Part shown: one piece after another, positions 9,758 to 28,232 of the stretch
Numbering within the stretch: position 1 is the first letter of the stretch
Layout of the letters: each line of letters opens with the position of its first letter
Assembly: GCA_017450945.1 (NCBI GenBank)
Contig: JAFSSP010000002.1
Coordinates: 8,405-72,404 of the forward strand
Origin: Clostridia bacterium
GTDB taxonomy: Bacteria > Bacillota > Clostridia > Oscillospirales > CAG-272
Length of the DNA stretch: 64,000 bases
Direction: 5' to 3'
Program-made: the position numbers and the translations under genes
The notes under the pieces: generated by a model
Database searches by the model: none
Told to the model about the DNA's origin: nothing
Seen by the model: only the letters and a program-made list of their open reading frames with translations

Positions 9758-9766
9758 GGAGAAATC

Positions 9767-10888
9767 ATGGTTGTTGTAAAAGAGGTCAAAACCAAAAAGG
9801 AACAAAAAGAATTCCTTGATTTCCCGCTGAATTTGTACCGGGGCAACGATTGCTTTGTCCCGCCGCTCTACGGCGACGAAAAAAAGATCTTTCGCGCCGA
9901 CTATGTTTACAACGACACCTGCGACGCGGTCTACTTTAACGCCTACCGCGACGGAACGATCGTCGGGCGCATCTCGGGCATCATTCAGCGCGCCAGCAAC
10001 GAAAAACGGAATGAAAAGCGCGCCCGCTTTACGCGTTTTGACAGCATTGACGACGGCGAAGTTGCAAAGGCGCTCTTTGACGCGGTCGAGACTTGGGCAA
10101 AAGAAAAAGGGATGGACACCGTCTGCGGCCCGCTCGGATTTTCGGATCTGGAGCGCGAGGGGCTTCTCATCGAGGGCTTTGACCAGCTCTCCACCTTTGA
10201 GGAGCAGTACAACGCCGCCTACTACCAGACGCTCATCGAAAACCTCGGCTACAAAAAAGAGGTCGACTGGACCGAGAGCAAACTGCGTGCGCCGAAGGAC
10301 TACGACGGCTCGCTCGATAAAATGACCGAGTACATCATGAAGCGTTACAACCTGCATTTTGGCCCGGCAAAGAACGTAAACGATTTTCTTGACAAGTACG
10401 CCGACGGTTTTTTTGCCCTACTCGACGAATCCTACGACCAGATCTACGGCTCGGTCCCCTTTACCGACGCCATGAAAAAAATGATGATCGACAACTTCAA
10501 GCTCATCGTCGATCTGCGCTTTGTCGCCGTCATTCTTGACGAAAACGACAAAATCGTTTGTCTTGGCATCTGCTTCCCGTCGATCGCGCGCGCCGTGCAA
10601 AAATCGAAGGGCAGACTGACTCCGGCGGCACTTGTCCGCCTGCTTCGCGCCATCAAACACCCGAAGGTCATTGACTTGGGACTGGTCGGCGTTGCGCCCG
10701 AATACCTCAACCGCGGCATCAGCACCGCCATTTCGGCCGAACTCATCCGCATGCTCTCGAAGGACGGTATTGAGTACGCCGAAACCAACCTCAACCTTGA
10801 AAACAACTACGCGATCCAGAACCAGTGGAAGCGGTTTGACGAAACCAAGCACAAGCGCCGCCGCTCCTACGTCAAGCCTCTGGACTGA
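9767..10888 (+). CDS. Two-domain GNAT-fold acyltransferase-like protein
   Basis: 373 aa. C-terminal NRGISTAISAELIRML resembles GNAT motif A (R/Q-x-x-G-x-A). Sits between degV and plsX with 9-12 nt gaps. Confidence 0.5.
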   Translation: MVVVKEVKTKKEQKEFLDFPLNLYRGNDCFVPPLYGDEKKIFRADYVYNDTCDAVYFNAYRDGTIVGRISGIIQRASNEKRNEKRARFTRFDSIDDGEVAKALFDAVETWAKEKGMDTVCGPLGFSDLEREGLLIEGFDQLSTFEEQYNAAYYQTLIENLGYKKEVDWTESKLRAPKDYDGSLDKMTEYIMKRYNLHFGPAKNVNDFLDKYADGFFALLDESYDQIYGSVPFTDAMKKMMIDNFKLIVDLRFVAVILDENDKIVCLGICFPSIARAVQKSKGRLTPAALVRLLRAIKHPKVIDLGLVGVAPEYLNRGISTAISAELIRMLSKDGIEYAETNLNLENNYAIQNQWKRFDETKHKRRRSYVKPLD

Positions 10889-10900
10889 CGGAGGGAGAAC

Positions 10901-11917
10901 ATGGTAAAAATCATCGTTGACTGCTTTGGCGGCGACAAGAGCCCGGATGCAAACGTCGAAGGCTCTCTTGCCGCGCTCGAAAAATTTTCGGATCTTTCTT
11001 TGATCCTCACCGGCGACGAGAACATCTTAAAAGAAAAGCTCGAAGGCAAAAAATACGATCCTTCGCGCCTTGAAATTCTGCACGCACCCGAGGTCGTTGG
11101 CTGTGACGAAAAGCCGACCGACGTCATCCGGCTGAAAAAGGAAAGCTCGATGATGAAGGCGATAAAACTTTTGCGCGAGGATGACAGCATCTCTGGCATG
11201 GTCAGCGCGGGCTCGACCGGGGCACTTGTCGCCGCGGCGACCTTGCGCATCGGCCGCATCCGCGGGATCATCCGCCCGGCCTTTTGCCCGATTCTTCCCA
11301 CCATGAACGGCGGCATTGTCGGCATTTGCGACAGCGGCGCGAACGTCGATATCACGGCCGATTATCTCCAGCAGTACGCCATTATGGCCAGTGCCTATCT
11401 TGAGAGCGTCTACGGCATCGAACACCCGCGTGTGGCACTGCTGAACATCGGCACCGAAGAAACAAAAGGCGACGATCTGAGAAAGACCGCCTATCCCCTT
11501 TTGGAATCCACCAAGGGCATAAATTTTGTCGGCAACATGGAAAGCAGGGATCTGCTCACCGGCAAATACGACGTGGTGGTCTGCGACGGATTTTCCGGCA
11601 ACGTACTGGTCAAATCCACCGAAGGCGCCTGCCTGGAAATGCTCAAGCTACTCAAGCGGGATATTTCGTCGAGCATTTTCAATAAGATCGGCGCGCTCTT
11701 CATGTATAAGATGTTCATGAAGGAAAAAGAGTTTATGAACTATCAGAACTACGGCGGCAGCATCCTGCTCGGCACCGAAAAAACGGTGGTCAAGGGGCAT
11801 GGAAGCTCGAACGCCAGAGCCATTGAAAAGTGCATCGAGCAGGCCTACAAAACCAAAACAGGCGGCCTCTCGGAGCGCATTGAAGCGGCTCTTGCCGAAA
11901 ACCAAAAAGCCGAATAA
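10901..11917 (+). CDS. plsX: Phosphate acyltransferase PlsX
   Basis: MVKIIVDCFGGDKSP.. N-terminus and full-length PlsX-like sequence. Confidence 0.93.
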   Translation: MVKIIVDCFGGDKSPDANVEGSLAALEKFSDLSLILTGDENILKEKLEGKKYDPSRLEILHAPEVVGCDEKPTDVIRLKKESSMMKAIKLLREDDSISGMVSAGSTGALVAAATLRIGRIRGIIRPAFCPILPTMNGGIVGICDSGANVDITADYLQQYAIMASAYLESVYGIEHPRVALLNIGTEETKGDDLRKTAYPLLESTKGINFVGNMESRDLLTGKYDVVVCDGFSGNVLVKSTEGACLEMLKLLKRDISSSIFNKIGALFMYKMFMKEKEFMNYQNYGGSILLGTEKTVVKGHGSSNARAIEKCIEQAYKTKTGGLSERIEAALAENQKAE

Positions 11918-11932
11918 CGGAGGAATCACATC

Positions 11933-12160
11933 ATGTTTGAAGAAGTCAGAAAAGTTCTTGCAAAACAGCTTCGCGTGGACGAGACGATCATCACCCCGGC
12001 ATCGAAGATCAAGGACGACCTCGGCGCCGACTCGCTCGACGTTCTGCAACTGCTTATGACCATTGAGGAAGAGATGGGGATACAGGTGCCCGACGAGGAG
12101 CTTGCCGCCTTCAACACGGTCGGCGACGTTGTGGCCTATCTCGAAAGTCAGAAAAAATAA
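11933..12160 (+). CDS. acpP: Acyl carrier protein
   Basis: 75 aa with DLGADSLDVLQLLMTIEEE (DSL phosphopantetheine site). Confidence 0.93.
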   Translation: MFEEVRKVLAKQLRVDETIITPASKIKDDLGADSLDVLQLLMTIEEEMGIQVPDEELAAFNTVGDVVAYLESQKK

Positions 12161-12175
12161 TCGACCGATCCAATC

Positions 12176-12202
12176 AAAAAAGCGGCGCGTGCGCCGCTTT
12201 TT
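12176..12202. terminator. Bidirectional terminator between acpP and the convergent hydrolase
   Basis: AAAAAGCGGCGC-gt-GCGCCGCTTTTT. Confidence 0.8.
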
Positions 12203-13250
12203 ATTGTAGTGCTTTCTTTGCTGTTTCCTGCCTGAAAAACTCCAGTACCCCATCGAGAAACGCGGCGTTTGGCTCGCTGGCTCTCTCGTAGTCGATGCTT
12301 GTAAGAAAACTCTCTTTGACAGGCTCGGGAAGTCTGCCGCCGTATTGCTTTTGCAAGGTGATATACTCCTTTTCCACCGAGCGGACGTAGGCTCCCGCGC
12401 GCTCGGTCAGCCATGCGCCCGAGTGACCCGAGGAAAGCTCGGCGACCCGGACGTTTTGGTTGGTGATCCTATCTTTTCTGCCGGCAAGACTCGCTTCAAA
12501 CGGCACGACAAGATCCGCTTTATCTTGATAGAGCAGTACCGGCGTCTCGACCGCATTGATCGATTTGACGGCCGAGCGGTTCCCTTCCCTTCCAAAGGCA
12601 AAAAAGTCGCGCAGAGCAAGCGCCGGATACCCGAGGATCGAGAGCGCGCCCACGTGCAGTTTTGCGTGGTAGAACATGATCTCGGTCGGCAGATCAAATC
12701 CCGCAATGCAGGCCGCGGCCAGAACCGGCGCTTTTGAGAGATTCCTGCAGGCGGCGTAAGCCCCGGCGCTGTGCGCGTAGATCACGATCGGCAAATCCTT
12801 CTCTTCGGCAACGCAGGCAAGGGCCGCCGCAAGATCCCGCCCGGCCTGCGGAAGCCCGCGGACGCTTTTTCCCTCGCTCTTTCCAAGTGAGGTCGCATCA
12901 TAGGAAAAGACCTGCCAACCGTGATCGACAAAATAAGTGATCTCGGAGAGGTGCCCGTCGGCGGGGCATCCCGCCCCCGGAGCAACCAATATGAGTGCAG
13001 GGCTCTCGCGGTTCTCGTTTCCGTAAAAATAGCCGCAGAGCGAGCACCGGTGGCAGGAAAACCGGCATTCTTCTCTCGGGTAGCGCTCCGCATAGTGCGA
13101 ATACGGATACTGCACAAGAATCGATTTTTTTGCCATGGAGCGAAAGACCAGCCCCGAGATCACAACCGGAAGCACCAACGTTGGGAATAAAAGAAACGCC
13201 CACAAAATCCACAAACCATACCACCGCCTTACCGGTATAGTTTGGATCAA
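12201..13250 (-). CDS. Membrane-anchored alpha/beta hydrolase (paralog 2)
   Basis: N-terminal TM helix, YAHSAGAY elbow, DKADLVVP and SSGHSGAW motifs. TTG start at 13250 is uncertain because no clear RBS is present. Confidence 0.7.
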   Translation of the reverse strand: MIQTIPVRRWYGLWILWAFLLFPTLVLPVVISGLVFRSMAKKSILVQYPYSHYAERYPREECRFSCHRCSLCGYFYGNENRESPALILVAPGAGCPADGHLSEITYFVDHGWQVFSYDATSLGKSEGKSVRGLPQAGRDLAAALACVAEEKDLPIVIYAHSAGAYAACRNLSKAPVLAAACIAGFDLPTEIMFYHAKLHVGALSILGYPALALRDFFAFGREGNRSAVKSINAVETPVLLYQDKADLVVPFEASLAGRKDRITNQNVRVAELSSGHSGAWLTERAGAYVRSVEKEYITLQKQYGGRLPEPVKESFLTSIDYERASEPNAAFLDGVLEFFRQETAKKALQ

Positions 13251-14397: not shown

Positions 14398-15351
14398 TTA
14401 CATCTTTTTTGCAGGCGCATCCACCGAATCAATAAACGCCTTGATCGCGGCGTCGTATTGCTCGGGAGCGTTGATCCGGATGCGCGAATGTCCTCCCTTT
14501 TCAAACCAGACAAGCTGTTTGTGTTTGGAGGGGCAAACGTCGTAGAGCTTTTGCGCTTTGTCGGGATCCGAATATTGATCCTCCCTGCCGTGTAGCATAA
14601 GGATCGGTTTTTGCAGGTTGAGAATCCTTTTTTTCGGGCCGTCGCCCACCGCGTCAGCGTGTGAAAAAACGCGGATGTAAAGCAAAACAAACCAGATAAA
14701 CGGATACTTCGGCCGCTTTTGCTCCTCCATGTGGCGAAGGAAGCTCGAATAGAAGCAGTCGTAGATCCCATCCACTGCAAGACCCACCACATAGTCGGGA
14801 CACTCGTTTGAGGCCGCCGCAAAGAGCGTGGTGGAAGAACCGATGCAAATGCCGTGCAGAAAGATCTTTTTCTGCCCTTTTTCATCGTGTAAAAACTTTG
14901 CCCAAGCGATCACATCGCGGTATTCTTTGTAGCCGATGCAGTTGAAGGTTCCCTCCGACAGGCCGTGACAGCGGTTGTCGATCACAAGGAAGTTACAGGC
15001 GGCCCCTTTGTAGGGAATGGCGTAATAGTAGGAGTAGCGCAGCGCCTCCATACGGCCGGGGACAATGATGGCCGTGCGGTCGTAGCCATAATCGTAGAAT
15101 TCGCCGGCCAGACGAAAACCGTCGCTGACGATCGAAACTTCGGATCTATAGGCCTCTTCGCCTTTGATCCATGCCTCGCCCTCGCGGTACATGCGGGCAA
15201 GCTCTTCATCGTCCGGCTCGCTGATCTCTCTTCCCCATTTGCCCGGTTTGTTGCGGACAAGAACAATGGTATAAACGATCCCGCCAACCAAAAATCCGGG
15301 GAACAGGAACAGCACAAAAATAATCAAAAAAACAATGAGTGCAATCTTCAA
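14398..15351 (-). CDS. Membrane-anchored alpha/beta hydrolase (paralog 3, Cys in nucleophile position)
   Basis: TTG start at 15351 follows GGAGGAA. TM helix present. Elbow reads GICIGSS where paralogs have GISMG. LHGREDQ and GGHSRI motifs. Confidence 0.75.
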   Translation of the reverse strand: MKIALIVFLIIFVLFLFPGFLVGGIVYTIVLVRNKPGKWGREISEPDDEELARMYREGEAWIKGEEAYRSEVSIVSDGFRLAGEFYDYGYDRTAIIVPGRMEALRYSYYYAIPYKGAACNFLVIDNRCHGLSEGTFNCIGYKEYRDVIAWAKFLHDEKGQKKIFLHGICIGSSTTLFAAASNECPDYVVGLAVDGIYDCFYSSFLRHMEEQKRPKYPFIWFVLLYIRVFSHADAVGDGPKKRILNLQKPILMLHGREDQYSDPDKAQKLYDVCPSKHKQLVWFEKGGHSRIRINAPEQYDAAIKAFIDSVDAPAKKM

Positions 15352-15365
15352 GGGGACTTCCTCCG

Positions 15366-17021
15366 TCAGACAAGGCCGATCATCCAGTGGTAGAGCGTCT
15401 GACCGCCGTACACCGGGCAAATTTCCAGCTCCGGGAAGGCATCGCCGAGGATCGTTTCCACATCGCCCGCACCGGCAAAGCCATCCTTGCCGCCGAACGC
15501 CATGCAAATCTCTTTTCCGTCGGGATCCAGATGTGCAAGACCAATGCGCAGAGCTTCTTTTAAGTCGTCCGAGGCCGCAACGATCTCGCCGTCGACCAGC
15601 GAAAGATATTGTCCTTTTTTCGCCGAAATCGTCTCTCCTTCAAAATCCTTGGTCGCAACCGTGAGAAGCAGAGCCGAAACGTTCTCGGCGCCGTCCTGCA
15701 TCAGACGAATACGATAGTCGGTATCCTCACTGCTCGCCACATCCATTTCGATGGCGCAGTATCCCTCGATCATGTTGGCGGTCGGGATCACGGTCACGCG
15801 GTCGGCTTTGCCCGAAAGAGAGGCCGCCTGGAGCGCCGCGCGAACCGAATTTTTGTTGTTGGGAAGGATCACGATGCGGTTTGCATTTGTTTTACGGATG
15901 GCGTCAAGGAATTCCTCGGCCGAGGTATTCATCTCGGAGGAGGCCTCGATCACCTTGGTGCAGCCGAGGTCGGTGAAAAGCGTTTTCATCTCTTCGCCGT
16001 TGACGACCGCAACGATGCCGAGCGGGGCAAGATCTCTCTCTCCCGCCTCTTTTTGCCGCTCGTTGTACTGGAGCTGCATGTTTTCGAGCTTGAAGGTCAA
16101 AAATTCGCCGTATCTGCGGGCAAACGCGATCACCTTTTCGGGCTCTTTGGTATGGACGTGCACCTTGAGCCGCGTGCCCTCGAGGACCGAGACGATCGAT
16201 TCGCCCATGGTTTCGAGCGTTGCAAGGAAGCTTTGCAGATCAAACTCCTTGTCATAGCCTTCGGTTTTGAGCAACCGGAGCAAAAACTCGGTGCAATAGC
16301 CTTTTTCAAAGCTGCTGGTTTCGTCAAAGAGGTCAAAGTCGGGAGTCTCTGCGACCGCGGAGGTTTCAAAATCGTTTTTTGCGAGGCTCTCGCCGGGCTT
16401 GCCTTCGAGAATGTCGCCCGAAAGGAACATGGCCATGCCCTCCACAAAAACGATATACCCCATCGCGCCGCTGTCAACGACGCCGGCTTTTCTCAAAACG
16501 TCGAGGAGCAGAGGCGTGTTGGCAAGGCTCTTTTTCATTTCTCTGACATAGAGCGAAAAGAGCTCCTTTGCGCCCTCGCACTCGTCAAGCTCGGGACGGA
16601 TATTTTCGAGGCCCTCTCTCGCCACGGTGAGGATCGTGCCCTCAACCGGGTGCGAAACCGCGGCGTATGCCTGACGGTAGCCGCTCTCAAAGGCGTCGAT
16701 GAGTTCCTTGTTGCCGATCTCTTCTTTCTCTTTTAAGGCGAGGTACCAGCCGCGGATGATCTGCGAGAGGATCACGCCCGAGTTGCCGCGCGCACCAAGC
16801 AGCGCGCCCGAGGAAAACTCGGAAAGATACTCTCCGACGCCGGGCTCGGGAGATGCGCTTCTAAGCCCCTTTTCGACGGTCAGGCGCATGTTGACGCCGG
16901 TATCGCCGTCGGCCACGGGAAAGACGTTGAGATCGTTAATTTTTTTCTCATGCAGACAGAGGTTGGCGTAGCCGTTTGCCAGCATTCCCTCCAGCTTCTG
17001 TCCGTCGATCCGATTGATCAT
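15366..17021 (-). CDS. DAK2-domain fatty acid kinase subunit (YloV/FakA family), copy 2
   Basis: NVFPVADGDTGVNM motif. ATG at 17021 follows AGGAGTG, so the longer TTG-start ORF to 17054 is less likely. Confidence 0.85.
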   Translation of the reverse strand: MINRIDGQKLEGMLANGYANLCLHEKKINDLNVFPVADGDTGVNMRLTVEKGLRSASPEPGVGEYLSEFSSGALLGARGNSGVILSQIIRGWYLALKEKEEIGNKELIDAFESGYRQAYAAVSHPVEGTILTVAREGLENIRPELDECEGAKELFSLYVREMKKSLANTPLLLDVLRKAGVVDSGAMGYIVFVEGMAMFLSGDILEGKPGESLAKNDFETSAVAETPDFDLFDETSSFEKGYCTEFLLRLLKTEGYDKEFDLQSFLATLETMGESIVSVLEGTRLKVHVHTKEPEKVIAFARRYGEFLTFKLENMQLQYNERQKEAGERDLAPLGIVAVVNGEEMKTLFTDLGCTKVIEASSEMNTSAEEFLDAIRKTNANRIVILPNNKNSVRAALQAASLSGKADRVTVIPTANMIEGYCAIEMDVASSEDTDYRIRLMQDGAENVSALLLTVATKDFEGETISAKKGQYLSLVDGEIVAASDDLKEALRIGLAHLDPDGKEICMAFGGKDGFAGAGDVETILGDAFPELEICPVYGGQTLYHWMIGLV

Positions 17022-17063
17022 GGAACGAACACTCCTGTTTGCTTCTTTTCTCAAAAGGAATTT

Positions 17064-18410
17064 TTATTTGTTGTCCTTTTTGCCCATCATTACAAGGCTC
17101 TTGGGGAGAATATAGGTTCCCGCAAATGCCACAAACATGGCGATGGCACAGATGAGGGTCATATAAGCCATTGCCTGCGAGCCCTCTTTTTTGCTTGCAT
17201 CCTTCAGGGCGACCAGCACCACGCCGGTTCCAAGCCCGGAAGCCACGCCGGAAAAGAGTCCCTGCACGGCAAAGTACATAGCCGAGTTGGAAATGCCGGT
17301 TCTTGCCTCTTCCTCAGCCGCAAGTTGAGCGGGGACCGAGTAAGCGACGGCAAAGAGCGAGCCGACCGCCATGGAGCAAATGAGTCCGCAGACCACCGAA
17401 AGGATGGTTTTGGGAAGTCCCGCACCAAGGAATTTGCCCACAAAGAACATGGCAAACATTCCGACGCCGAACAGAAGAAGAACATAGCGGAAAGCAAATC
17501 CGAATCCCTTTTTGCGCAGGATCACATTGTAAAGGATCAAGGTAAACGGAACCGGTGCAAAGGAGGTCGCCATGACCACCATCATATTGAGTCCCACAAA
17601 GGAGAAATACTCGTTGATGCCGCCGAGGAAAAGCTGTACGCCAAAGGTCATGAGCGCGTAGACGCACATCCAAAGCACATAGGTCTTGTTGCGGAAGGTG
17701 TGGCCGAGCGACTGAACGAGGTTGACCGATTTGACCTTTTCGACGTTCCCGAGTTCATCCTGGTTCTCTTTGATCATAAAGAGCGGAATGAGCATGGTCA
17801 GCGCCAGAGGCAGAACGATCAGCGCAACATACTTGATGTTGATACCGTTGAGCAAAATGCGAACCAGCACGTAGCCGATGATGAAATAGAAGATATCGCA
17901 AACCGACTTGACATTCGACATGAAGGTTCTGTCGGGCTCGTTGTCCACAATTTCGGTAAAGGTGGCGTAGTAGGTCACCATGGTCAGCGTATAGAAGCTA
18001 TAGAACACGCAAAGAACCACACCAAAGAAAATGGTGTTGCCGAGAGTGGCGCCCGAGGTGTTGGGAATGACAAGCGCAAACAGAAGGTAAGCCGCAACGG
18101 TCAGCACAAGGCCGATGAGGATCGACGGGCGGCGGCGCCCCCATTTGGTGCGCAAATTATCGGTAAAGGAAGCCATGGGAATGTCAATGATTCCGTCAAT
18201 GATCTTTGCAACCAAAACAAAGGTTGCCCAAACGGCGGCAACGACAAGATCCTTGCCAAGAAAAGTCTGGAAGGGGATCGCGTCAACACCGAATCCGCCG
18301 ACAAGCAGGGCGCTGCAAAGATAGGAGCCCATCATCAGGTTGAGCATATTGACGCCCATACCCGAGACGGCATAGACGAGCATTTGACTTCTTTTGGTTA
18401 ACCTTCTCAT
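17064..18410 (-). CDS. GPH (MelB/MFS_2) family cation symporter
   Basis: DGIIDIPMASFTDNLRTKWGRRRP matches the GPH loop signature (D..DP..G...D......GRRRP). Polytopic, 448 aa. Confidence 0.8.
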   Translation of the reverse strand: MRRLTKRSQMLVYAVSGMGVNMLNLMMGSYLCSALLVGGFGVDAIPFQTFLGKDLVVAAVWATFVLVAKIIDGIIDIPMASFTDNLRTKWGRRRPSILIGLVLTVAAYLLFALVIPNTSGATLGNTIFFGVVLCVFYSFYTLTMVTYYATFTEIVDNEPDRTFMSNVKSVCDIFYFIIGYVLVRILLNGINIKYVALIVLPLALTMLIPLFMIKENQDELGNVEKVKSVNLVQSLGHTFRNKTYVLWMCVYALMTFGVQLFLGGINEYFSFVGLNMMVVMATSFAPVPFTLILYNVILRKKGFGFAFRYVLLLFGVGMFAMFFVGKFLGAGLPKTILSVVCGLICSMAVGSLFAVAYSVPAQLAAEEEARTGISNSAMYFAVQGLFSGVASGLGTGVVLVALKDASKKEGSQAMAYMTLICAIAMFVAFAGTYILPKSLVMMGKKDNK

Positions 18411-18416
18411 TTTTCT

Positions 18417-19343
18417 TTAACCCTCCAGACATTTGGTCAGAATTTGTTTTTCGGCCTCAAGTCCCTCCGAGATCGGCGTGCCGACGTAGTAAGCGGCCAT
18501 AAGGCCGGGGCCTACGTTGATGCCGCAGGTGGGGTAAACGTCCTTGACGCAAACCTCCAGCGGGTGGAACTTCTCTTCGATCATGGCCTTATATTTTTCG
18601 GCCTGCGCCCTGCGGTTGCTCTGGGCGATGAAGATGACCTGTCCTTCGGGGTTGACAATGGTTTTTTCGATATAGCCGAGCAGAGCGGCGTAAGCGGCCT
18701 TCTCACCCTTGGCTTTTCCGATGACGGTGGTAAGCCCGTTGTAATCGAACTCGCCGATCGGTTTGATGCCGATGAGCGTGCCAAAGAAGGCGGCCGCGTG
18801 ATTGATGCGTCCCTTCTTTGCAACAAAGCTCAGATCGTCCAGCCAGCCTGCCTGGTGGTAAAGATTTTTGGTTTTTTCAAGCTCGGCCGCCGTTTCTTCC
18901 AGGCTGTGGCCCGCGGCACGGAACTTGGAGGCGTTGACCGCCATAAGACCGACTGCGGGGCCGAAGCGAAGCGAGTCGATCACTTCGATCTTGGCGTCCG
19001 GCATCTCTTCCAGCACCATGGCCTTTGCCTCGCACGCAAACTCGTAAGCGCCGCTGATCTTGCTTGAGAGCGCAAGGAACAGAACACCCTTCCCTTCGGA
19101 TACGATCTTCCGGAAAGCGTCGCGCACTTCGCCTGCGCTGGGGGGAGAGGTTTTGAAACGGTCGGGGTTTGCTTTGAGTGCGGAGTAAAACTCCTCTCTC
19201 GAAGTGGTTTCCCAACTGACAAAGGAATCGCTCTCCTTGCCGTCGATCACCAGATGTGCGATCAACATCTTGATCGAATACTTCTCCTGAAGATCCTTTT
19301 CCAGATCCGCGGAAGTATCTACCAAAATCTCAAAATCTGTCAT
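18417..19343 (-). CDS. DegV-family fatty-acid-binding protein (FakB-like), copy 2
   Basis: FEILVDTSADL start and FKTSPPS motif. 308 aa. Confidence 0.85.
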   Translation of the reverse strand: MTDFEILVDTSADLEKDLQEKYSIKMLIAHLVIDGKESDSFVSWETTSREEFYSALKANPDRFKTSPPSAGEVRDAFRKIVSEGKGVLFLALSSKISGAYEFACEAKAMVLEEMPDAKIEVIDSLRFGPAVGLMAVNASKFRAAGHSLEETAAELEKTKNLYHQAGWLDDLSFVAKKGRINHAAAFFGTLIGIKPIGEFDYNGLTTVIGKAKGEKAAYAALLGYIEKTIVNPEGQVIFIAQSNRRAQAEKYKAMIEEKFHPLEVCVKDVYPTCGINVGPGLMAAYYVGTPISEGLEAEKQILTKCLEG

Positions 19344-19357
19344 GTCGTTTTCCTTTC

Positions 19358-20305
19358 TTATGCTTCTGTATCGTCATTGAAACAGCGTTTCAAAAAACGG
19401 TCAACCGTTGTGTCGCCCTCCTCGGAGAGCTTTTGATAGCAAAGCGCGTGTGCCGCCCCCGGAACCGCAAGGAATTCCTTTTTGGAGGCACAGGCTTCAA
19501 AATTTTTGCGTCCGACCGAGATCGGGACTGTGCGATCCTCCTCGCCGTGGAGAAAGAGCGCGGGGATTTTTGTTTTTTTCAAGGATTCTTCAACCGAAAC
19601 CTTGAGGTCTTTGTGAAAGGCGCAAAGGCCGACCAGTCGTGCGACCGGCCGCATGAGGAAGATCGGCAGGTGCCTTTGTCTGGAATCACGAATGTACTGC
19701 CCGTATGGGCTTTCAAAGCCGCAATCAAGAATCATGCCCTTCACGCGACCGCCGTCCAGTTTGTCCGAGGCGTAGGCAATGGTGGCGCATCCCATGGAAA
19801 TACCCCAAAGAACGGCTTCCTCGGTATTGGTGTTTTCAAAAAGCCAGTCGATCCATTCTAAAAGATCCTCTTCTTCCACAACGCCGAGCGAGGGACGTCC
19901 CCCGCGGCTTGGTGTGTGCGCTCTGGAATAGGGGAGAAAAATGTTGTATCCTTTTTCGAGGAATTCGTTTGCGGCTCCGGCAAAATTGGTCAGCGGCCGC
20001 ACGCAAAATCCGTGGCAAAGAACAAGCGTTTTTTCGCTCTCCCCGGGATAGTAGTCGGCACAGAGCTGCAACTTTCCTTTGCGGCGCGCAACATGTTGCA
20101 CCGGGCGGCGCTCCAGACGTTCGACGTCGGCGCGCATCTCTTCAAGATAGGGTGCGGCGCTATCCTCTTCGGGGTGCTTTTCTTCCCAGGGATATTTCGG
20201 GGTTTTCTGGCGGAACACACCGAGAAAGGAGGCGATGACAGGCCCCACGATGAACAAAAGGTAGAGCCCGATCAGAGAGAGCAGAATAATCCAGAAGATT
20301 TCCAT
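19358..20305 (-). CDS. Membrane-anchored alpha/beta hydrolase (paralog 4)
   Basis: TM helix, GISMGCAT, LHGEEDRTVP and PGAAHA motifs. Closest to paralog 1. RBS AAGAGG. Confidence 0.85.
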   Translation of the reverse strand: MEIFWIILLSLIGLYLLFIVGPVIASFLGVFRQKTPKYPWEEKHPEEDSAAPYLEEMRADVERLERRPVQHVARRKGKLQLCADYYPGESEKTLVLCHGFCVRPLTNFAGAANEFLEKGYNIFLPYSRAHTPSRGGRPSLGVVEEEDLLEWIDWLFENTNTEEAVLWGISMGCATIAYASDKLDGGRVKGMILDCGFESPYGQYIRDSRQRHLPIFLMRPVARLVGLCAFHKDLKVSVEESLKKTKIPALFLHGEEDRTVPISVGRKNFEACASKKEFLAVPGAAHALCYQKLSEEGDTTVDRFLKRCFNDDTEA

Positions 20306-20314: not shown

Positions 20315-21262
20315 TTACAGGGAAATTGCTTTTTGTGCCGGAACAAGCTTTTGCAGGGATCTGCCCATCTTTGCTTCGTAGCGCCAGATGAGCGCCACGC
20401 GCGCGGAGTCTCCGCAAAGGGCAAGATACAGCGGAGGCGTCCCCTCATAAATGCCACAGAGGGACAGGGCGTTCTCTTTGAGAGAGGATTGCCGATAGAC
20501 TTCTCGCGCCCGCTCTTCCACTTCGCGACAGAAAAGCTCCTTCTCTCCCGCGGGGATCTCTTTTGCAAACAGCCCGACCGGCTCCTGCGAAACGGCGACA
20601 AGCGCGGCGGTATCGGTGGTGCAGATCGAAAACCGGAAAATCCCGGACACAAAGCCGGATTTGGTTCTTTTGAGCTTCCAGTTCTTTGGTTCGTAGGCAA
20701 GACTTTTTGAGACGGCATGCCCCAAAAGCGTCCAGGCAAACAGTTCTTTTTGGCTCTTTTCCGGCGGCATCTTTTTGATGGCGCGCAGAAGCGCTTTTGG
20801 CAAAGGACTGTCAAGCGGGGGCAATTCCTCCGAAAAGGACGCGATATAGACGTCAAGCACCGGACGCGCGCGCCAGCTTTTGCGCGCGGCCTCCTCCAGT
20901 TCGCAAAAATGTCTGCCGAACACGCACTCGTTGGCAAAATGCTCGCAGTTGTTCTTGAGAATGTCGTAACCGCCTTCTCCGATCCTTTCGCGGGCGATCT
21001 TCATCGTTTTTTTCGGAGAAAAGCGACTCCGCCGCTCGGCGCGGTCGAGCGAGGCGACCTCCACCAGCTTGCCGGCGGAAAACTCGTCAATGCTCACACT
21101 TTTTACAAAGATTTTGGAGGCGTCGCGGTTCAGCCCGTCGAGCGGTGCGTCTCCGAACTCGATGACCTCATCGTCCGAGCAGTAAACGCCGTAGTGACAA
21201 ATGGCGCCCACATGGATGCGGATCATATCTCCCGGAGAGCAATCGGCAAGGATCCACTTCAT
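20315..21262 (-). CDS. LRAT/PLAAT-like (permuted NlpC/P60) domain fused to a Sfp-type PPTase-like domain
   Basis: N-terminal half has GDMIRIHVGAICHYGVY (His box) and NNCEHFANECVFG (Cys box). C-terminal half parallels Sfp (PEKSQK.., LLGHAVSKSL, FRFSICTT..LVAVSQEPVGLFAKE), but the GxD Mg site is not conserved. Confidence 0.6.
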   Translation of the reverse strand: MKWILADCSPGDMIRIHVGAICHYGVYCSDDEVIEFGDAPLDGLNRDASKIFVKSVSIDEFSAGKLVEVASLDRAERRSRFSPKKTMKIARERIGEGGYDILKNNCEHFANECVFGRHFCELEEAARKSWRARPVLDVYIASFSEELPPLDSPLPKALLRAIKKMPPEKSQKELFAWTLLGHAVSKSLAYEPKNWKLKRTKSGFVSGIFRFSICTTDTAALVAVSQEPVGLFAKEIPAGEKELFCREVEERAREVYRQSSLKENALSLCGIYEGTPPLYLALCGDSARVALIWRYEAKMGRSLQKLVPAQKAISL

Positions 21263-21510
21263 TTCAGTTTTTTCTCGATGTAATCGACCACGTCGCCAAG
21301 CGTAACAAAATCGTTCATGCCGACGTTGTCAAAACGCATGGAAAAAGTCTCCTCAATGGCAAGGATCATATAGAGCATCCCGATCGAGGAAAGACCGACG
21401 TCGCTGGTGAGATTGGAATTTTCTTCAATCGCGTCCAACGAGTCTCTTTTGGCCGGGTCGGCTGAGAGCAGAATGCTTTTGAGCGTATCGATGATCTGTT
21501 GTCTTTCCAT
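21259..21510 (-). CDS. Acyl carrier protein, non-canonical attachment motif
   Basis: 83 aa. DVGLSSIGMLYMILAIEE occupies the place of DLGxDSLD. Overlaps its neighbours by 4 nt on one side and is 1 nt from the other. Confidence 0.75.
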   Translation of the reverse strand: MERQQIIDTLKSILLSADPAKRDSLDAIEENSNLTSDVGLSSIGMLYMILAIEETFSMRFDNVGMNDFVTLGDVVDYIEKKLK

Positions 21511-23023: not shown

Positions 23024-23691
23024 GATCTATCTCCTTCTGCAATTTTTTTGAGTTCTGCTTCTTTTTCTCTTAAAAATTCACTGAATTTCTGAATGCTGTC
23101 CATGGACGGCATGGCGCCAAGCCTCTCTCGGACGTCGATCGGCTCGCCGATGCAATAAACCGTGCGGCGATACCATTTTTCGGGCGTTTTTGAATAGATC
23201 GGAACGATCGGAACGCCGCTCCGGATCGCCATCATCACCAAGCCGGATTTGAAAACGTCCACCTCGGCTTCACTGGCGTTCACATGCCCTTCGGGATAGA
23301 TCGAAACGATGTTCCCAGCGGTCAGGTGATCGGTGATCTCGCGGAAGGTGCCGAGATTGAAGTTTTTGCGGTTCACCTCGATGCAGTGAAAGGCGTAGGT
23401 GAAGAGCCAGCGGGTAAACTTTTTTTCAAAAAGCTCGTCGGCGGCAACAAAGTGCATGCGCCGGTACCAAATTGAAAACTGGTCGCGCGCGGGATCGAGA
23501 AGACCTGTGTGGTTAAAAGACAGGACGGCACCGCCGCAGATCTTCTTTTTTGCGGCCGCATTCTCAAATCTCCACTTGGGCCGCAGAATGAGAAGCCAGC
23601 CCGGTGCGGCCAGAAGCCGACCAAAATCGTACAGAGCGTAGCGAAGATCGATGATGCGCGCTTTTTTATTTCTTTGCTTTTTTTGCTTCAT
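23020..23691 (-). CDS. PlsC-type acyltransferase (LPLAT) B
   Basis: ATG at 23691. NHTGLLD (HX4D) and IYPEGH boxes. Overlaps the upstream LPLAT by 26 nt and the downstream ligase by 4 nt. Confidence 0.75.
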   Translation of the reverse strand: MKQKKQRNKKARIIDLRYALYDFGRLLAAPGWLLILRPKWRFENAAAKKKICGGAVLSFNHTGLLDPARDQFSIWYRRMHFVAADELFEKKFTRWLFTYAFHCIEVNRKNFNLGTFREITDHLTAGNIVSIYPEGHVNASEAEVDVFKSGLVMMAIRSGVPIVPIYSKTPEKWYRRTVYCIGEPIDVRERLGAMPSMDSIQKFSEFLREKEAELKKIAEGDRS

Positions 23692-24313
23692 ACTCTTCCA
23701 AAAGATCGCCCAGTTCCATGATCCTTTCCCGGTATTTTTCCGAAATGCGGGCGAGCTGTTCCTTTTCGGACAGCGACGTGTCAAGATAGGCCAAGGTATC
23801 GATCGGTTTCCCGATCAAAACCGAAAGGCGTTTCTTTTTGAAATAAGAGCCGTTGGTATAAACCGGGATTACCGGAACGCCGCTCGAGAGGGCGAGGTAG
23901 GCCACGCTCGGCACAAAGGGGAGCGGCCGCGCCTCACCCGGAAGCGGAAGCCGACTCTCCGGGAAGACCAGAACCACGCCGCCCTTTTCCAGAATCTTTT
24001 TGGATTTTTCCACAAATCCGTAGTCATGGGCCTTGCGATCCACGCGGATGCCGCCCAGCCATTTGAGCAGGATGCGCAGTCCCTTTTTTTCAAAGAGGAC
24101 TTCGGCCATCTGCGCCCGGACGGTTCTGAAGAAAAAGACAAACAGGATCGCGACATAATCGAGGACCGAGGTGTGGTTGCTGATGATGATCGCGGGCCCT
24201 TTGATCCTTTTGCTTTGTATTTGTTTATCCTCGTAAAAGACGCGCGGCCGAAAGCAAATCACTTCGGTAAGCCAGCCCGTGATCTTTACGAAGGTGTTCC
24301 AAAATGTTATCAT
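23666..24313 (-). CDS. PlsC-type acyltransferase (LPLAT) A
   Basis: NHTSVLD (HX4D) and VFPESRL boxes. RBS AAGGAAG. Confidence 0.8.
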   Translation of the reverse strand: MITFWNTFVKITGWLTEVICFRPRVFYEDKQIQSKRIKGPAIIISNHTSVLDYVAILFVFFFRTVRAQMAEVLFEKKGLRILLKWLGGIRVDRKAHDYGFVEKSKKILEKGGVVLVFPESRLPLPGEARPLPFVPSVAYLALSSGVPVIPVYTNGSYFKKKRLSVLIGKPIDTLAYLDTSLSEKEQLARISEKYRERIMELGDLLEEYEAKKAKK

Positions 24314-24343: not shown

Positions 24344-26278
24344 TCAGCTTTTCTTTTGCTCCCGGATGTAGTCGGCGATCTGTCCTATGGTGCAAAGATT
24401 CAACCCGCCCGAGACCGGGAAGGGTACCGAAAACTCTTTTTCGATCCGCACGGCCAAAGAAAAGTAATCGAGGCTTGTGCCTTCCCCGTCCGAGAAAAAG
24501 TGGTAATCCTCTCCCATGGTATCAACCGGACGGCCGAGCGCCTCCGAAAAGAGGAGCGCCACGCGCCGGGATAGCTCGTCGCCAAGTTCAGAGGTCGCGC
24601 TCCCAAAGGTCAGTTCGGGATATGCGCCTTCTTGGTAGCGTTTTGCGATGCGCCTGCGGTTGAGCTTGATCTCGTCACCAAAAAGCAGGTCTTTCGAGGT
24701 CAGACAGATCTTCCTGATCTGCCCGGTCAGCTGCAATTCGTCCAGCTTTTTTTGCAGAGCGGCGCGCAGGCCGTCGGCAGTCTCTTGATTGATCCTGCGG
24801 TCGACCGAGGCAATGAGAAGAGGCTCGACCCGACTCTCTTTTTTGATGCCGACAAGGCAAATACTCTGCAAGTGCTCGATCTTTGAGAACGCGGCCTCGA
24901 TGATCGTGGGGTTGAGATTTTCCCCGGCCTCTGAGACGACCAGATCGTCGGACCTGCCGAGGATGAAATATCTCCCCCGCTCCTGCTTTGCAAGATCCTT
25001 TGATAAAAACCAGCCGTTCTTTTCGATGCGGCGGTCTCCTTCCAGAACATACTTTGCCGCGGCCGTGGACTTGATGAGAAGCTGACCGCCTTCGTCGACC
25101 GAATACTGCGCCGAGGGGAGCGGTTTTCCGACCGAGCCGCCGTCAAGGATCCTTTTGTCATCCGAAAGCTCCACCGAGGTGATCCCCACCTCGGTCATGC
25201 CGTAACCGTTGGAAAGATGGTAGCCGATCGCGTTGAAGAATTCCAGAACCTCACCGTGGATCTCACTGCCGCCGGTGATCATATAGCTTATGCTTTCGCC
25301 AAAGAGTTTTTCACGCACCTCTTTATAGGCCAGGCGCGAGAACAGCCGCTCGATCGCCGGGAATTTTTGCAGTTTGCGCGAGAGCTCCATGCCCTTTTGA
25401 AACTTCTTTGCAGTCTCTTCCTTGGCTCCGATGGTCTTCATCGCCTCGGCATAGACCCGGTTCCAGAACAGCGGCACGGCAAACAGGTGGGTGACCTTGT
25501 GGCGGCGGATGGTGGAAAGAATGGTATCGGGCGAAAGATCTTTGAGCTCCACCAGCGTGCGCGAGAAAAAGGTGAACCAGGCGTAAAGTGCCACAAACCC
25601 AAAGATGTGATAGAAAGGCAGAAAGGCGAGCAGCTTAAGCTCTCCTTCATAGTGCCGTTTGATCAGTTTGGACTCGGCAAGGATCTCTCTGGTATCAAGG
25701 ATCTGGCAGGCCAACTCTTTTGCCGAGTAAGCGCAGATCTTGACCGTCTCGGACGTGCCGGAAGACATAAAATAAAACTCCTCGCCGAAAGGGGCGTTTT
25801 GGGGAAGCGCGGCGTCGGAGGGTTTCATCTCGTCCGTCCGGATGGTGCGGATCGAAAATTCTTCTCCACCCGAGATCACGGCAACCGCCTTCATGCGGGC
25901 AAGCGCGTCCTCCAGGATCTCTTTTCCGAGGCGCGCGTTCAAAAGCAGTGGGCAAAAGCCTGCTCTGAGGATCGCCCAATAGCACTCGATCCAGGCAAGG
26001 CCGTTTTCAAGAAAGAGGCCTACCGCACTGCCGGTCGGCGCATCCGAAAGCATCTGTTTCAGCCCCGGGGCAAGACGCTCGATCTCATCCTTGCATTCCC
26101 CGTAGGTCGTTTTCTTGATGCGATAGCCCTCGCTGCTCTCAAATAAAATATTCTCCCGCTCGGAAAACATGAGTTCATAGAGCGCAGAGAAGGATCTATC
26201 TGTTTGTTCCAACCTGCCGAGCTTCCAGGAAACATACTGATCGATGCTTCTGAAGCCGGCCAAATTCTGAATTTTCAT
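24344..26278 (-). CDS. Acyl-AMP ligase fused to a C-terminal carrier (PP-binding-like) domain
   Basis: ATG at 26278. SSGTSETVK, GYGMTE and GWFLSKDLAKQERGRYFILGRSDDLVV motifs. C-terminus DGEGTSLDYFSLAVRIEKEF resembles a carrier Ser motif. Confidence 0.8.
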   Translation of the reverse strand: MKIQNLAGFRSIDQYVSWKLGRLEQTDRSFSALYELMFSERENILFESSEGYRIKKTTYGECKDEIERLAPGLKQMLSDAPTGSAVGLFLENGLAWIECYWAILRAGFCPLLLNARLGKEILEDALARMKAVAVISGGEEFSIRTIRTDEMKPSDAALPQNAPFGEEFYFMSSGTSETVKICAYSAKELACQILDTREILAESKLIKRHYEGELKLLAFLPFYHIFGFVALYAWFTFFSRTLVELKDLSPDTILSTIRRHKVTHLFAVPLFWNRVYAEAMKTIGAKEETAKKFQKGMELSRKLQKFPAIERLFSRLAYKEVREKLFGESISYMITGGSEIHGEVLEFFNAIGYHLSNGYGMTEVGITSVELSDDKRILDGGSVGKPLPSAQYSVDEGGQLLIKSTAAAKYVLEGDRRIEKNGWFLSKDLAKQERGRYFILGRSDDLVVSEAGENLNPTIIEAAFSKIEHLQSICLVGIKKESRVEPLLIASVDRRINQETADGLRAALQKKLDELQLTGQIRKICLTSKDLLFGDEIKLNRRRIAKRYQEGAYPELTFGSATSELGDELSRRVALLFSEALGRPVDTMGEDYHFFSDGEGTSLDYFSLAVRIEKEFSVPFPVSGGLNLCTIGQIADYIREQKKS

Positions 26279-26348
26279 AAACACCTCAAACTCGGCCGAA
26301 AGAAGGGCTTTCGATCGAAAAGATGCGAATTTTGAAATATATAGTAGT

Positions 26349-26377
26349 ATTATAACATAACTATAGTCTGCTGTCAA
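26349..26377 (-). promoter_or_regulatory. Promoter of the 11-gene lipid operon (TTGACA-17-TATAAT)
   Basis: Minus strand reads TTGACAgcagactatagttatgtTATAAT, about 64 nt upstream of ATG 26278. Confidence 0.7.
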
Positions 26378-26483
26378 CCATAATTTGCGTTCCGCGCCCT
26401 CCATTTTTTCCCTTGCAAGGAGTCGGCGCAATTCTTTGATCCCGCTTCTCCTGTAAACAATTTATGAACTTTTTTCCCGCTTC

Positions 26484-26512
26484 TTGACATCCTCTGAAAA
26501 CCGTTTTATAAT
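26484..26512 (+). promoter_or_regulatory. Promoter of the abrB-like/ABC operon (TTGACA-17-TATAAT)
   Basis: TTGACAtcctctgaaaaccgtttTATAAT. Confidence 0.7.
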
Positions 26513-26549: not shown

Positions 26550-26759
26550 ATGAAAGAACAAACGGAAGACCGCTTTATCGTCAGCGTCAAAGTCGGTCCA
26601 AAAGGGCAAATCACCATTCCCGCCGAGGCGCGGAAAATGTTTGATATCAAAGAGGGGGACACCCTCATGGTAATGGGCGACCGGGCGCGCGGCATTGCGC
26701 TGGTCAAGTCCGACGCGTTTTATTCTTTGATGGGAGGTGCATTCCATGTCGATCATTAA
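26550..26759 (+). CDS. AbrB/MazE/SpoVT-family DNA-binding protein
   Basis: VKVGPKGQITIPAEARKMFDIKEGDTLMV is a swapped-hairpin SpoVT-AbrB motif. RBS AAGGAGG. Confidence 0.8.
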   Translation: MKEQTEDRFIVSVKVGPKGQITIPAEARKMFDIKEGDTLMVMGDRARGIALVKSDAFYSLMGGAFHVDH

Positions 26760-27483
26760 AACCGAAAAACTGCGCAAGGTTTACAAGGACGTCGTGGCGC
26801 TCGAAGGGCTTGATCTTGCCATCGAGGAGGGCGAGCTCTTCTCGCTTCTCGGAGTCAACGGCGCCGGAAAAACCACAACGCTCAAAATGCTGACCGGTCT
26901 TACAAAGCCGACCGGCGGCGACGCGATCCTTTGCGGGCACTCGATTCTGACCGAATCCGATCGTCTCCGCGGCCTTGTCGATATCTCGATGCAGGAGACC
27001 GCCGTTGCGCGCAAGCTGACCGTGGAAGAGAACATCGCCTTTTACGCCGAGCTCTGCGGACAAACAAAAAAAGAGCAGGCCGAAACGGTCGCCTCGCTCT
27101 CCAAAACCTTTGGATTTGAAAAAGTCCTCAACAAACAGGCGCAAAAGCTCTCGGGCGGCTGGCAGAGAAAGCTCTCGATCGCCCTCGCGCTCGTCTCCAA
27201 CCCGAAAATCCTTTTCCTCGACGAGCCGACGCTCGGCCTTGACGTGCTGGCCCGTCGCGAGCTCTGGAACACCATTTCCTCGCTCAAAGGGAAAATGACC
27301 ATCATTCTGACCACGCACTACATGGAAGAGGCCGAGGCCCTCTCGGATCGCATCGGCGTTCTCAAAGACGGCCGTCTCCTGTTTGTCGGCAAAAAGGAAG
27401 AACTGTTTGCGCTGACCGACAAAAATTCGGTGGAAGAAGCCTTTATTGAACTGGTTTCCGGGAAAGGAGGACAGCCCGCATGA
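26746..27483 (+). CDS. ABC transporter ATP-binding protein
   Basis: GVNGAGKTT Walker A, LSGGWQRKL signature, ILFLDEPT Walker B. ATG at 26746 follows GGGAGGTG. Confidence 0.9.
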   Translation: MSIIKTEKLRKVYKDVVALEGLDLAIEEGELFSLLGVNGAGKTTTLKMLTGLTKPTGGDAILCGHSILTESDRLRGLVDISMQETAVARKLTVEENIAFYAELCGQTKKEQAETVASLSKTFGFEKVLNKQAQKLSGGWQRKLSIALALVSNPKILFLDEPTLGLDVLARRELWNTISSLKGKMTIILTTHYMEEAEALSDRIGVLKDGRLLFVGKKEELFALTDKNSVEEAFIELVSGKGGQPA

Positions 27484-28232
27484 AACAATCGCTTGCAAGG
27501 ATCCGCGCCCTGACCGGCCGGAATATAAAAGAACTTCTTCGCGATCCGCTCTCGCTCGTCTTCCTGATCCTCATGCCGCTCGGCATGGAGATCCTGTTTT
27601 ACTTTTTGTTCAGCAAACTGACCTCGCAGTTCCAGATGAAGTATCTCGCGCCCGGTATCGTGGTCTTCTCGCAATCCTTCCTCACGCTCTTCTCTGGCCT
27701 TATGATCGCCGTCGACCGCTCGAGCGCCTTTTTGACCCGGCTTTACGTTTCCAGCGCAAAGCCGCATGAGTTCATTTTTGGCTATGCCTTCTCTCTTTTG
27801 CCGATCTCGCTCGCCCAGTCGATCCTCTTCTTTGTCGTCGGCGGCATCATCGATCCCTCGCTCTTCTCGGCCCGCATGATCGCAGCCGTGGCAGTCTCGC
27901 TGATCCCGGCGGTCTTCTTTATCGGCAGCGGGATCTTATTCGGCTCGCTCTGCACCGAAAAATCGATCGGAGGAGTTGCCTCGATCCTCATCGCCGGACA
28001 GTCGATGCTCAGCGGCATGTGGTATCCCATCGACGGACTCGGAAAAGGAATGCTCACGCTGATGAACGTCCTGCCCTTCCGCCCCGCAACCCTGCTCGTG
28101 CAAAATCTTTTGGGCGGCGTTGCCTCGCCCTTTGACGATTTTGTAAAACCGCTCCTCATCGTCCTTGCCTATACCGTCGCCATCTTCACCGCCGCCATCT
28201 TCGCCTTCGGCAGTAAGATGAAGGCGAAATAA
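27480..28232 (+). CDS. ABC-2 type exporter permease
   Basis: 250-aa polytopic protein. ATGA overlap with the ATPase gene. Confidence 0.8.
   Translation: MKQSLARIRALTGRNIKELLRDPLSLVFLILMPLGMEILFYFLFSKLTSQFQMKYLAPGIVVFSQSFLTLFSGLMIAVDRSSAFLTRLYVSSAKPHEFIFGYAFSLLPISLAQSILFFVVGGIIDPSLFSARMIAAVAVSLIPAVFFIGSGILFGSLCTEKSIGGVASILIAGQSMLSGMWYPIDGLGKGMLTLMNVLPFRPATLLVQNLLGGVASPFDDFVKPLLIVLAYTVAIFTAAIFAFGSKMKAK

Follow-up and report, generated by a model that had tools for sequence, protein, structure and literature searches.

An LRAT/PLAAT-type domain fused to a degenerate Sfp-type phosphopantetheinyl transferase and coupled to an acyl carrier protein gene in Clostridia

To our knowledge, vertebrates and viruses are the source of nearly all known LRAT/PLAAT enzymes, which act there as phospholipid-dependent acyltransferases. 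The gene considered here lies on the minus strand of a 64,000-nucleotide stretch of DNA from a Clostridia bacterium (the whole stretch is called the window below), and raises the question of what a domain of this family does when it is joined to a relic of a 4'-phosphopantetheinyl transferase (PPTase) and placed directly after a gene for an acyl carrier protein (ACP). The N-terminal half of its 315-aa product, the fusion protein, is by sequence and predicted structure a Cys-His acyl-transfer domain of the LRAT/PLAAT type, whose active site (His23, Cys106) is intact, and the C-terminal half, on the same grounds, descends from an Sfp-type PPTase that appears catalytically dead in this copy. We hold the domain identities and the pseudoenzyme status, taken jointly, with high confidence. 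What the two halves do together is less certain, and is weighed in the last section.

Two domains of known descent

The Pfam LRAT model PF04970 (120 positions) scores 69.5 bits over residues 8–118 of the fusion protein (cutoff 24.3; E = 4e-19), and the best relatives of solved structure in a PDB sequence search are PLAAT3, AdPLA and HRASLS2 (E = 2e-4). An AlphaFold2 model of the full protein, calculated from an alignment of 114 relatives that is dominated by members with an intact PPTase, has a mean predicted local distance difference test (pLDDT) score of 89.8 and a predicted template modelling (pTM) score of 0.76. Its N-terminal half, at pLDDT 96–98, matches PLAAT3/AdPLA (4FA0/7ZOM) in Foldseek with an E-value of about 5e-6 and template modelling (TM) scores of 0.78–0.81. 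As in the vertebrate LRAT/PLAAT proteins (PF04970; PLAAT3/AdPLA, 4FA0, 7ZOM), the fold is a circularly permuted NlpC/P60 fold in which the catalytic His precedes the NCEHF box. His23, which aligns with His23 of PLAAT3, is identical in 114 of 114 relatives, as are N105, C106, E107, H108 and F109, and Cys106 aligns with PLAAT3 Cys113. By analogy with the PLAATs, this half presumably uses acyl-Cys thioester chemistry.

The C-terminal half is harder to place. Searches with its own sequence returned no PPTase (PF01648) in Pfam (E<=0.1), NCBIfam or the PDB sequences (E<=10), and its assignment therefore rests on intermediate relatives. A profile of the C-terminal halves of 25 intact relatives matches Sfp (1QR0/4MRT) at E = 2.9e-12. 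It also matches AcpS enzymes and, at E = 3e-8 to 1e-6, fungal fatty-acid synthase (FAS) in its PPT domain. When the C-terminal half of the fusion protein is aligned with the profile of intact members, hhalign gives 98.7% (E = 3e-16), confined to aa 131–239. Sfp aligned with the full family alignment gives 98.3% (E = 2e-14), the confident stretch being Sfp 51–164; residues 52–161 are the part of the Sfp query confirmed against the PDB alignment. The A3 hidden Markov model (HMM) matches the open reading frame (ORF) at E = 2e-17. Below the PLAATs, and down to E~0.5, all but two of the Foldseek matches of the predicted structure are PPTases. AASDHPPT (1.2e-3) and Sfp (1.6e-3) lead, followed by PptAb, PptT, PcpS and AcpS (prob >=0.9, E 1e-3 to 1e-1), at TM-scores of only 0.35–0.45.

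The order of elements matches that of the Sfp-type group II PPTases (PF01648; 1QR0/4MRT, AASDHPPT 2BYD) from the first beta-strand through FxxSH and GxDxE, and the family consensus of this half reads FSLSH(T)...VGVDIE...W(T)xKESxFK. Intact relatives keep Sfp His90, Asp107, Glu109, Lys150, Glu151 and Lys155. In contrast, the window copy was called as lacking five of these six, as well as Lys75 and the motif Trp. Position by position, Lys75 of Sfp falls in a gap, CoA-binding His90 is replaced by Thr215, Mg-binding Asp107 by Phe232, Glu109 by Lys234 and Lys155 by Ser267, and Trp147 is deleted. From the W-x-x-K-E-S-x-F-K motif Lys262-Glu263 alone survive, and may correspond to Sfp Lys150-Glu151. 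Relative to intact members, ~30 aa are gone between the GxDxE strand and this KE remnant. In mutagenesis of group II PPTases (PMC4103896), two of the three Mg ligands, the first (Asp) and the third (Glu), proved essential, unlike the second. Because the first Mg ligand is Phe and the CoA-binding residues are gone, we take the C-terminal half to be a pseudoenzyme.

The earlier note on this DNA, which was made from the sequence alone, had seen most of this. It recognized the permuted NlpC/P60 order of the LRAT family and suggested a Foldseek comparison, and both the Pfam match, with the His box before the NCEHF box, and the structural match to PLAAT3 (TM up to 0.81) agree with it. It also called the PPTase possibly degenerate, with the Mg-binding Asp of GxD replaced; Phe232 is what occupies that position, and the count of five lost signature residues and ~30 lost aa strengthens the call. 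Two of its three motif pairings with Sfp, LLGHAVSKSL with LLGDVLVRSV and FRFSICTT...VSQEPVGLFAKE with FNISHSG...DSQPIGIDIEK, were reproduced by the hhalign alignments, but the third, PEKSQK with PEKREK, falls outside the confidently aligned Sfp 51–164. Its description of the whole C-terminal half as collinear with Sfp holds for aa 133–239, but not for the last ~75 aa, which are diverged and shortened.

We then compared the gene with that of its nearest relative, P0002, which is 60% identical over 100% of the protein. The ratio of non-synonymous to synonymous substitution rates (dN/dS) is 0.12 in the LRAT half (79% identity), 0.23 in aa 131–240 (52% identity) and about 0.60 in aa 241–315 (41% identity), and 0.06–0.21 for the other operon genes, all rough values from one sequence pair with dS at about 1–2, near saturation. 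This suggests that the first subdomain of the PPTase relic is still constrained and the tail far less so.

A large family in which the PPTase half decays

The earlier note had proposed looking for the same architecture in other genomes, and full-length, collinear LRAT-then-PPTase relatives were indeed found. The homologue search gave 114 clusters, most of them of 330–355 aa with precomputed PF04970 and PF01648 matches; P0003, for example, is 41% identical over 96% of the window protein. When a single genome was scanned for each GTDB species, >577 loci encoding a relative were found, all in metagenome-assembled genomes of Clostridia from gut or rumen (Oscillospiraceae, Acutalibacteraceae, Ruminococcus and Christensenellaceae, with a few Lachnospiraceae and Butyrivibrio). 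The LRAT half used as sole query retrieves 283 proteins at E<=1e-10 among 1.84 billion cluster representatives. The names that relatives carry in databases are generic, e.g. 'lecithin retinol acyltransferase family protein'.

The state of the PPTase half was then scored in 249 pooled proteins at the six Sfp positions His90, Asp107, Glu109, Lys150, Glu151 and Lys155. The set is intact (H-D-E-K-E-K) in 149 (~60%). Eight more carry E109Q and are probably still active by the mutagenesis data (PMC4103896). Fifty-five are degenerate or shortened, some of which may be fragments at contig ends, and 29 consist of the LRAT domain only (130–190 aa). Within the alignment A2, a subgroup with VGVDIQ (P0049, P0059, P0073, P0074, P0076 and P0102) has Gln as its second Mg ligand position, like human AASDHPPT-type two-ligand PPTases, and should therefore probably be counted as active, not as degenerate.

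Members of the degenerate class grade continuously from full-length point mutants of 333–354 aa to forms of 250–312 aa, which retain just positions ~1–105 of the PPTase profile, i.e. the first subdomain. When the LRAT halves are arranged in a neighbour-joining tree, parsimony requires at least 11 independent intact-to-degenerate changes among the 114 proteins. The window protein and P0002 share their lesions and stand in the middle of this series. The loss is also seen at the level of genomic loci, 13 of 80 of which encode the LRAT domain alone, with the next gene starting ~100 nt on, while two of 80 are partial.

A different kind of variation is the tandem array of LRAT domains, found in P0115 (1125 aa, 9–10 copies), P0213 (637 aa, five copies) and P0246 (432 aa, three copies), and also in P0239.

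The fusion gene in its operon

The public annotation, from which a single gene call was examined for the fusion protein, starts at Met13, 12 codons later than the ORF described here, and gives 303 aa (the additional codons are window positions 21227–21262). The 315-aa start is the correct one, because Met1-Lys-Trp is kept in >=90% of relatives and aa 6–12 align with PLAAT3. The ATG (21262–21260) overlaps the TGA of the upstream ACP gene (21259–21261) in a 4-nt ATGA, the overlap that had been reported before. Inspection of the sequence revealed no signal peptide or hydrophobic anchor, and the fusion protein should therefore be cytoplasmic.

The genes around it (Table 1) are separated by gaps or overlaps of 1–14 nt and make up a tight minus-strand operon. 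Both PlsC-type proteins match Aas-type models of NCBIfam (acyl-[ACP]--phospholipid O-acyltransferase) with E-values around 1e-12 to 1e-13, and the AMP-forming ligase, a candidate acyl-ACP synthetase, adjoins the ACP gene in most loci. The major facilitator superfamily (MFS) transporter is MFS_2/GPH-like, and Pfam and NCBIfam gave no match to an LplT model for it. We also considered the OaaC pathway for fatty-acid amides of gut Clostridia, and rejected it, as it needs a stand-alone condensation domain of a non-ribosomal peptide synthetase, which is absent from the operon.

Table 1. Features of the fusion gene, its operon and the adjacent lipid genes (window positions)
Feature	Positions	Strand	Basis or remark
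Whole gene, LRAT + pseudo-PPTase fusion, 315 aa	20315..21262	-	ORF list; stop codon 20315-20317
LRAT/PLAAT-type permuted NlpC/P60 domain, aa 8-118	20909..21241	-	Pfam PF04970, PDB sequence match, Foldseek
His box ICHYGVY, aa 21-27, with catalytic His23	21182..21202	-	Invariant His23; PLAAT3 alignment
Cys box NNCEHFANECVFG, aa 104-116, with nucleophile Cys106	20915..20953	-	N105-F109 invariant; PLAAT3 NCEHF aligned
PPTase-like first subdomain and start of second, aa 133-239, predicted dead	20546..20866	-	hhalign, A3 HMM, pLDDT 86-96
Degenerate FSICTT, aa 211-216 (family FSLSHT, Sfp FNISHS)	20615..20632	-	Substitution in text
Degenerate VGLFAKE, aa 229-235 (family VGVDIE)	20558..20578	-	Substitutions in text
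Diverged, shortened second-subdomain remnant, aa 240-315	20318..20545	-	Unaligned by hhalign; pLDDT 59-88
Adenylating enzyme with fused C-terminal carrier (Ser in GEGTSLD), 644 aa, first operon gene	24344..26278	-	Pfam AMP-binding and PP-binding
Two PlsC-type acyltransferases, H-x4-D NHTGLLD/NHTSVLD	23020 to ~23691; 23666-24313	-	PF01553 E~1e-17 each
AMP-forming fatty-acid ligase, 503 aa	21512..23023	-	Pfam AMP-binding E=1e-60
Dedicated ACP, 83 aa, Ser42 in GLSSIG (nt 21385-21387)	21259..21510	-	Pfam PP-binding E=2.9e-5, NCBIfam ACP models
Membrane-anchored alpha/beta hydrolase	19358-20305	-	Pfam/NCBIfam
DegV/FakB	18417-19343	-	Pfam/NCBIfam
MFS_2 transporter	17064-18410	-	Pfam/NCBIfam
FakA/YloV	15366-17054	-	Pfam/NCBIfam
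Second anchored alpha/beta hydrolase	14398 to ~15351	-	Pfam/NCBIfam
Downstream operon block	14398..20305	-	Intergenic gaps 9-14 nt
Putative sigma-70-type promoter TTGACA, 17 nt, TG-TATAAT	26349..26377	-	12/12 consensus match only
Alpha/beta hydrolase	3224-4189		
Glt-symporter-like protein	4268-5644		
PlsC-type acyltransferase, 389 aa	5641-6810		
Second FakA	7233-8870		
Second DegV	8777-9757		
GNAT	9767-10888		
PlsX	10901-11917		
Housekeeping ACP (acpP), 75 aa	11933-12160		
Another hydrolase	12201-13250	-	

The operon was followed by tblastn of the window proteins through 80 species-level Clostridia loci of ~20 kb each, and its order is the same almost everywhere, as it is in L084–L086. Two layouts occur. 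Type A has the order seen in the window, including the downstream block of hydrolase, DegV, MFS and FakA genes, and type B runs adenylase-carrier, MFS transporter, two PlsC genes, adenylase, ACP and, last, LRAT-PPTase. The earlier note had coupled the fusion gene to its adjacent ACP, and this is supported both by the overlap and by the conservation of the operon among relatives. The phosphopantetheine Ser is identical in 76 of 76 operon ACPs, including those of loci without the PPTase half, and because it is kept there the operon carriers can evidently be primed in trans. A search for a PPTase encoded apart from the fusion gene found none in the 64-kb window or in any 20-kb related locus.

Several details of the loci deserve mention in their own right. 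The type B transporters (L085 5116–6996; L086 5008–6948) are of 626–646 aa, ~190 aa above the 439–448 aa of the one in the window, and the hydrolase/DegV/FakA block is absent downstream of LRAT-PPTase in this layout. In L001, L028, L045 and L077, tblastn finds neither ligase nor ACP between PlsC and LRAT-PPTase, and detects no carrier but the one fused into the first gene. L043, L063, L069, L072, L075, L078 and L080 have a detected ACP and no adjoining ligase match; for L043 the only ligase match, a weak one of 24%, lies at another place in the locus.

At the 5' end of the operon, the mechanical ORF of the first gene (TTG at 26431, 695 aa) overruns the putative promoter through its additional segment (26279–26431), and a start at 26278, which gives 644 aa, is the better fit. 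A second perfect 12/12 sigma-70-type consensus lies on the plus strand (26484–26512) and diverges from the operon promoter; it precedes a 69-aa MazE/AbrB-type ORF (26550–26759) and a pair of ABC transporter genes (26737–28232). The terminator scan gave no excess over shuffled sequence (21 sites against 20.2 expected) and so marks no 3' end of the operon.

A second set of lipid genes adjoins the operon (window 3224–13250), so that the region carries paralogous fakA/fakB pairs and two stand-alone ACPs. Its housekeeping genes (fakA, degV, GNAT, plsX and acpP) are 2–10 kb away, with the plsX-acpP pair 8 kb from the fusion gene, and the presence of acpP implies an AcpS elsewhere in the genome.

Possible roles and their weight

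We believe that the ancestral protein was bifunctional. Its PPTase half would have primed both operon carriers, the neighbouring ligase would make acyl-S-ACP, and the LRAT half would take the acyl chain onto Cys106 by transthioesterification and pass it to a lipid acceptor, as a third acyl-transfer step, or to water, in editing or recycling of the carriers. A module of transporter, PlsC, ligase and ACP parallels LplT and the bifunctional Aas, which transport and re-acylate lysophospholipids in Gram-negative bacteria (PMC11416262), and on the strength of this parallel the operon is best taken as a machine that imports exogenous lysolipids and re-acylates them with scavenged fatty acids. A different PPTase would have taken over priming in the window organism, as the nearby housekeeping plsX-acpP pair suggests, and the fused PPTase would have become a pseudoenzyme on a reductive path from intact through dead and shortened to LRAT-only, along which the window copy has come part-way. 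The first subdomain might be retained since it packs against or assists the LRAT half, in keeping with the pTM score and the dN/dS of 0.23. We infer the catalytic steps from sequence, fusion and gene coupling, and acyl-ACP as the donor from the last two alone. As a whole we consider this explanation probable, and for the part that makes acyl-ACP the substrate of the LRAT half we lean in favour. The 'bifunctional enzyme' of the earlier note thus fits most relatives, which are intact, but not the window copy, which has lost the Asp, four further residues and ~30 aa.

A number of observations weigh against this explanation. Characterized LRAT/PLAAT enzymes take their acyl chains from phospholipids and not from acyl-ACP. 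At the third catalytic position, His35 in PLAAT3, the window protein has Glu35 and the family Gln or Glu; a polar third residue other than His is allowed within the NlpC/P60 superfamily. The substitute PPTase is unseen in the sequence at hand, which for the window genome is 64 kb. The TM-scores to PPTases are low, the second subdomain is modelled at pLDDT 59–88, and the dead half, as modelled, owes part of its fold to intact relatives in the AlphaFold2 alignment. The dN/dS values have the roughness stated above, and the value of 0.23 on the dead first subdomain speaks against mere decay.

This last value leads to the first alternative, also raised in the earlier note, that the dead PPTase fold is a required ACP-docking module, which presents acyl-ACP to the LRAT active site. 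Besides the purifying selection on aa 131–240, it would account for a frame that is open over 185 codons in two lineages with just 60% identity, for the repeated retention of the first subdomain (HMM positions ~1–105) in shortened relatives and for the translational coupling to the ACP gene, and the pTM of 0.76 suggests a fixed two-domain arrangement in the model. However, relatives have shortened or lost that half: 29 LRAT-only relatives and 13 LRAT-only loci are found in this operon next to an ACP whose Ser is conserved, so that the LRAT domain evidently works without it. In addition, the C-terminal half evolves faster than every other operon protein, with a tail dN/dS of ~0.6, and the part that is lost is the second subdomain, which forms the cleft. 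We therefore find a required docking role doubtful. Alternatively, the LRAT half may be a PLAAT-like phospholipase A/transacylase that acts on membrane or imported phospholipids, the fusion serving only for co-expression of the priming enzyme. All characterized LRAT/PLAAT enzymes use glycerophospholipid acyl donors (PMC7387801), the operon holds other lipid-ester enzymes and the MFS transporter, and the PPTase half is dispensable. Yet the gene directly follows the ACP gene, often with an overlap, in nearly all loci, its fusion partner is an ACP-binding enzyme, and it encodes no membrane anchor, unlike PLAATs and LRAT, all of which makes this reading unlikely to us. A reading in which the LRAT half would be an ATP-independent phospholipid:ACP transacylase working via acyl-Cys106, by transthioesterification between glycerophospholipids and the dedicated ACP, with the PPTase or its relic as ACP-recruiting module, strikes us as a long shot; if true, it would be a reaction undescribed for any enzyme, by which gut and rumen Clostridia could harvest acyl chains from host or dietary lipids onto ACP.

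Two further readings concern the identity of the halves themselves. The C-terminal half might still be an active PPTase with non-canonical residues, since Lys262-Glu263 survive, possibly as the counterpart of Sfp Lys150-Glu151, and the 64-kb window shows no second PPTase. This is hardly credible, as the first Mg Asp, which all tested group II PPTases require (PMC4103896), is Phe, the counterparts of His90, Lys75, Glu109, Lys155 and the motif Trp are lost with ~30 aa deleted, PF01648 misses this half yet detects most relatives, and the acpP gene implies an AcpS elsewhere. To an N-terminal half that is a conventional NlpC/P60 peptidoglycan or peptide hydrolase, with a coincidental lipid context, we give practically no credence. 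Superfamily membership and a weak Pfam match to Peptidase_C97 (E = 0.037) are in its favour, but a cell-wall role is contradicted by the permuted His-before-Cys topology with its LRAT-clade NCEHF box, the lack of a signal peptide and a lipid/ACP operon context that is conserved in 80 of 80 loci; the best structural matches, moreover, are PLAATs.

Each half is thus of known family descent, whereas the domain architecture and the operon are undescribed, the window copy being a degenerate example. A literature search found no publication linking LRAT with PPTase, ACP or Clostridia; the family, although large, is apparently unstudied and the operon appears uncharacterized. Unlike the vertebrate PLAAT/LRAT proteins, the window protein is bacterial, cytoplasmic and without a PLAAT-type C-terminal membrane anchor, its third catalytic position differs from that of PLAAT3, it carries a fused PPTase relic, and its gene is coupled to that of an ACP. 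It is likely, from these sequence associations, that a carrier-protein thioester is the acyl donor or acceptor of the LRAT half, which is undescribed for the LRAT/PLAAT family. Bacterial lipid enzymes of the permuted NlpC/P60 fold include LnsA, which N-acylates lipoproteins in S. aureus (PMC7387801), and Tox-Act1, a lipid-targeting toxin of the Salmonella type VI secretion system (PMC12994826). However, LnsA (YiiX-like) and Tox-Act1 belong to clades other than LRAT, are secreted or exported and have no link to a carrier protein or PPTase.

The PPT domain of the fungal FAS alpha-subunit (2UV8/2WAS) sets a precedent for joining a PPTase to the enzyme system that it serves by priming the carrier. 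That domain is AcpS-like, has a single subdomain and lies inside a megasynthase, whereas the Clostridia family has a two-subdomain, Sfp-type PPTase on a small stand-alone acyl-transfer domain, and its fused PPTase decays repeatedly. The parallel to LplT/Aas, known here from genes alone, lies in the MFS transporter, the Aas-matching PlsC enzymes, the AMP-forming ligase and the ACP. Compared with LplT/Aas, the parts are separate and duplicated (two ligases, two carriers and two acyltransferases), FakA/FakB, two membrane-anchored hydrolases and the LRAT-PPTase protein are added, and the hosts are Gram-positive-type Clostridia.

An LRAT-family domain is therefore tied to ACP, by gene fusion and translational coupling, in >=577 species-level genomes of gut and rumen Clostridia. 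The generic labels of the relatives, and a public start that lies 12 codons too late in the window protein, are matters for annotation. The family also offers a natural series of pseudoenzyme formation, in which an accessory priming domain was inactivated, shortened and lost again and again next to a partner domain that stayed invariant. In its composition the operon resembles a system for taking up lipids from outside and re-acylating them. Use of acyl-ACP by the LRAT half, if real, would extend the chemistry of the family, and would provide a testable route by which abundant uncultured gut anaerobes may assimilate host and dietary lipids.

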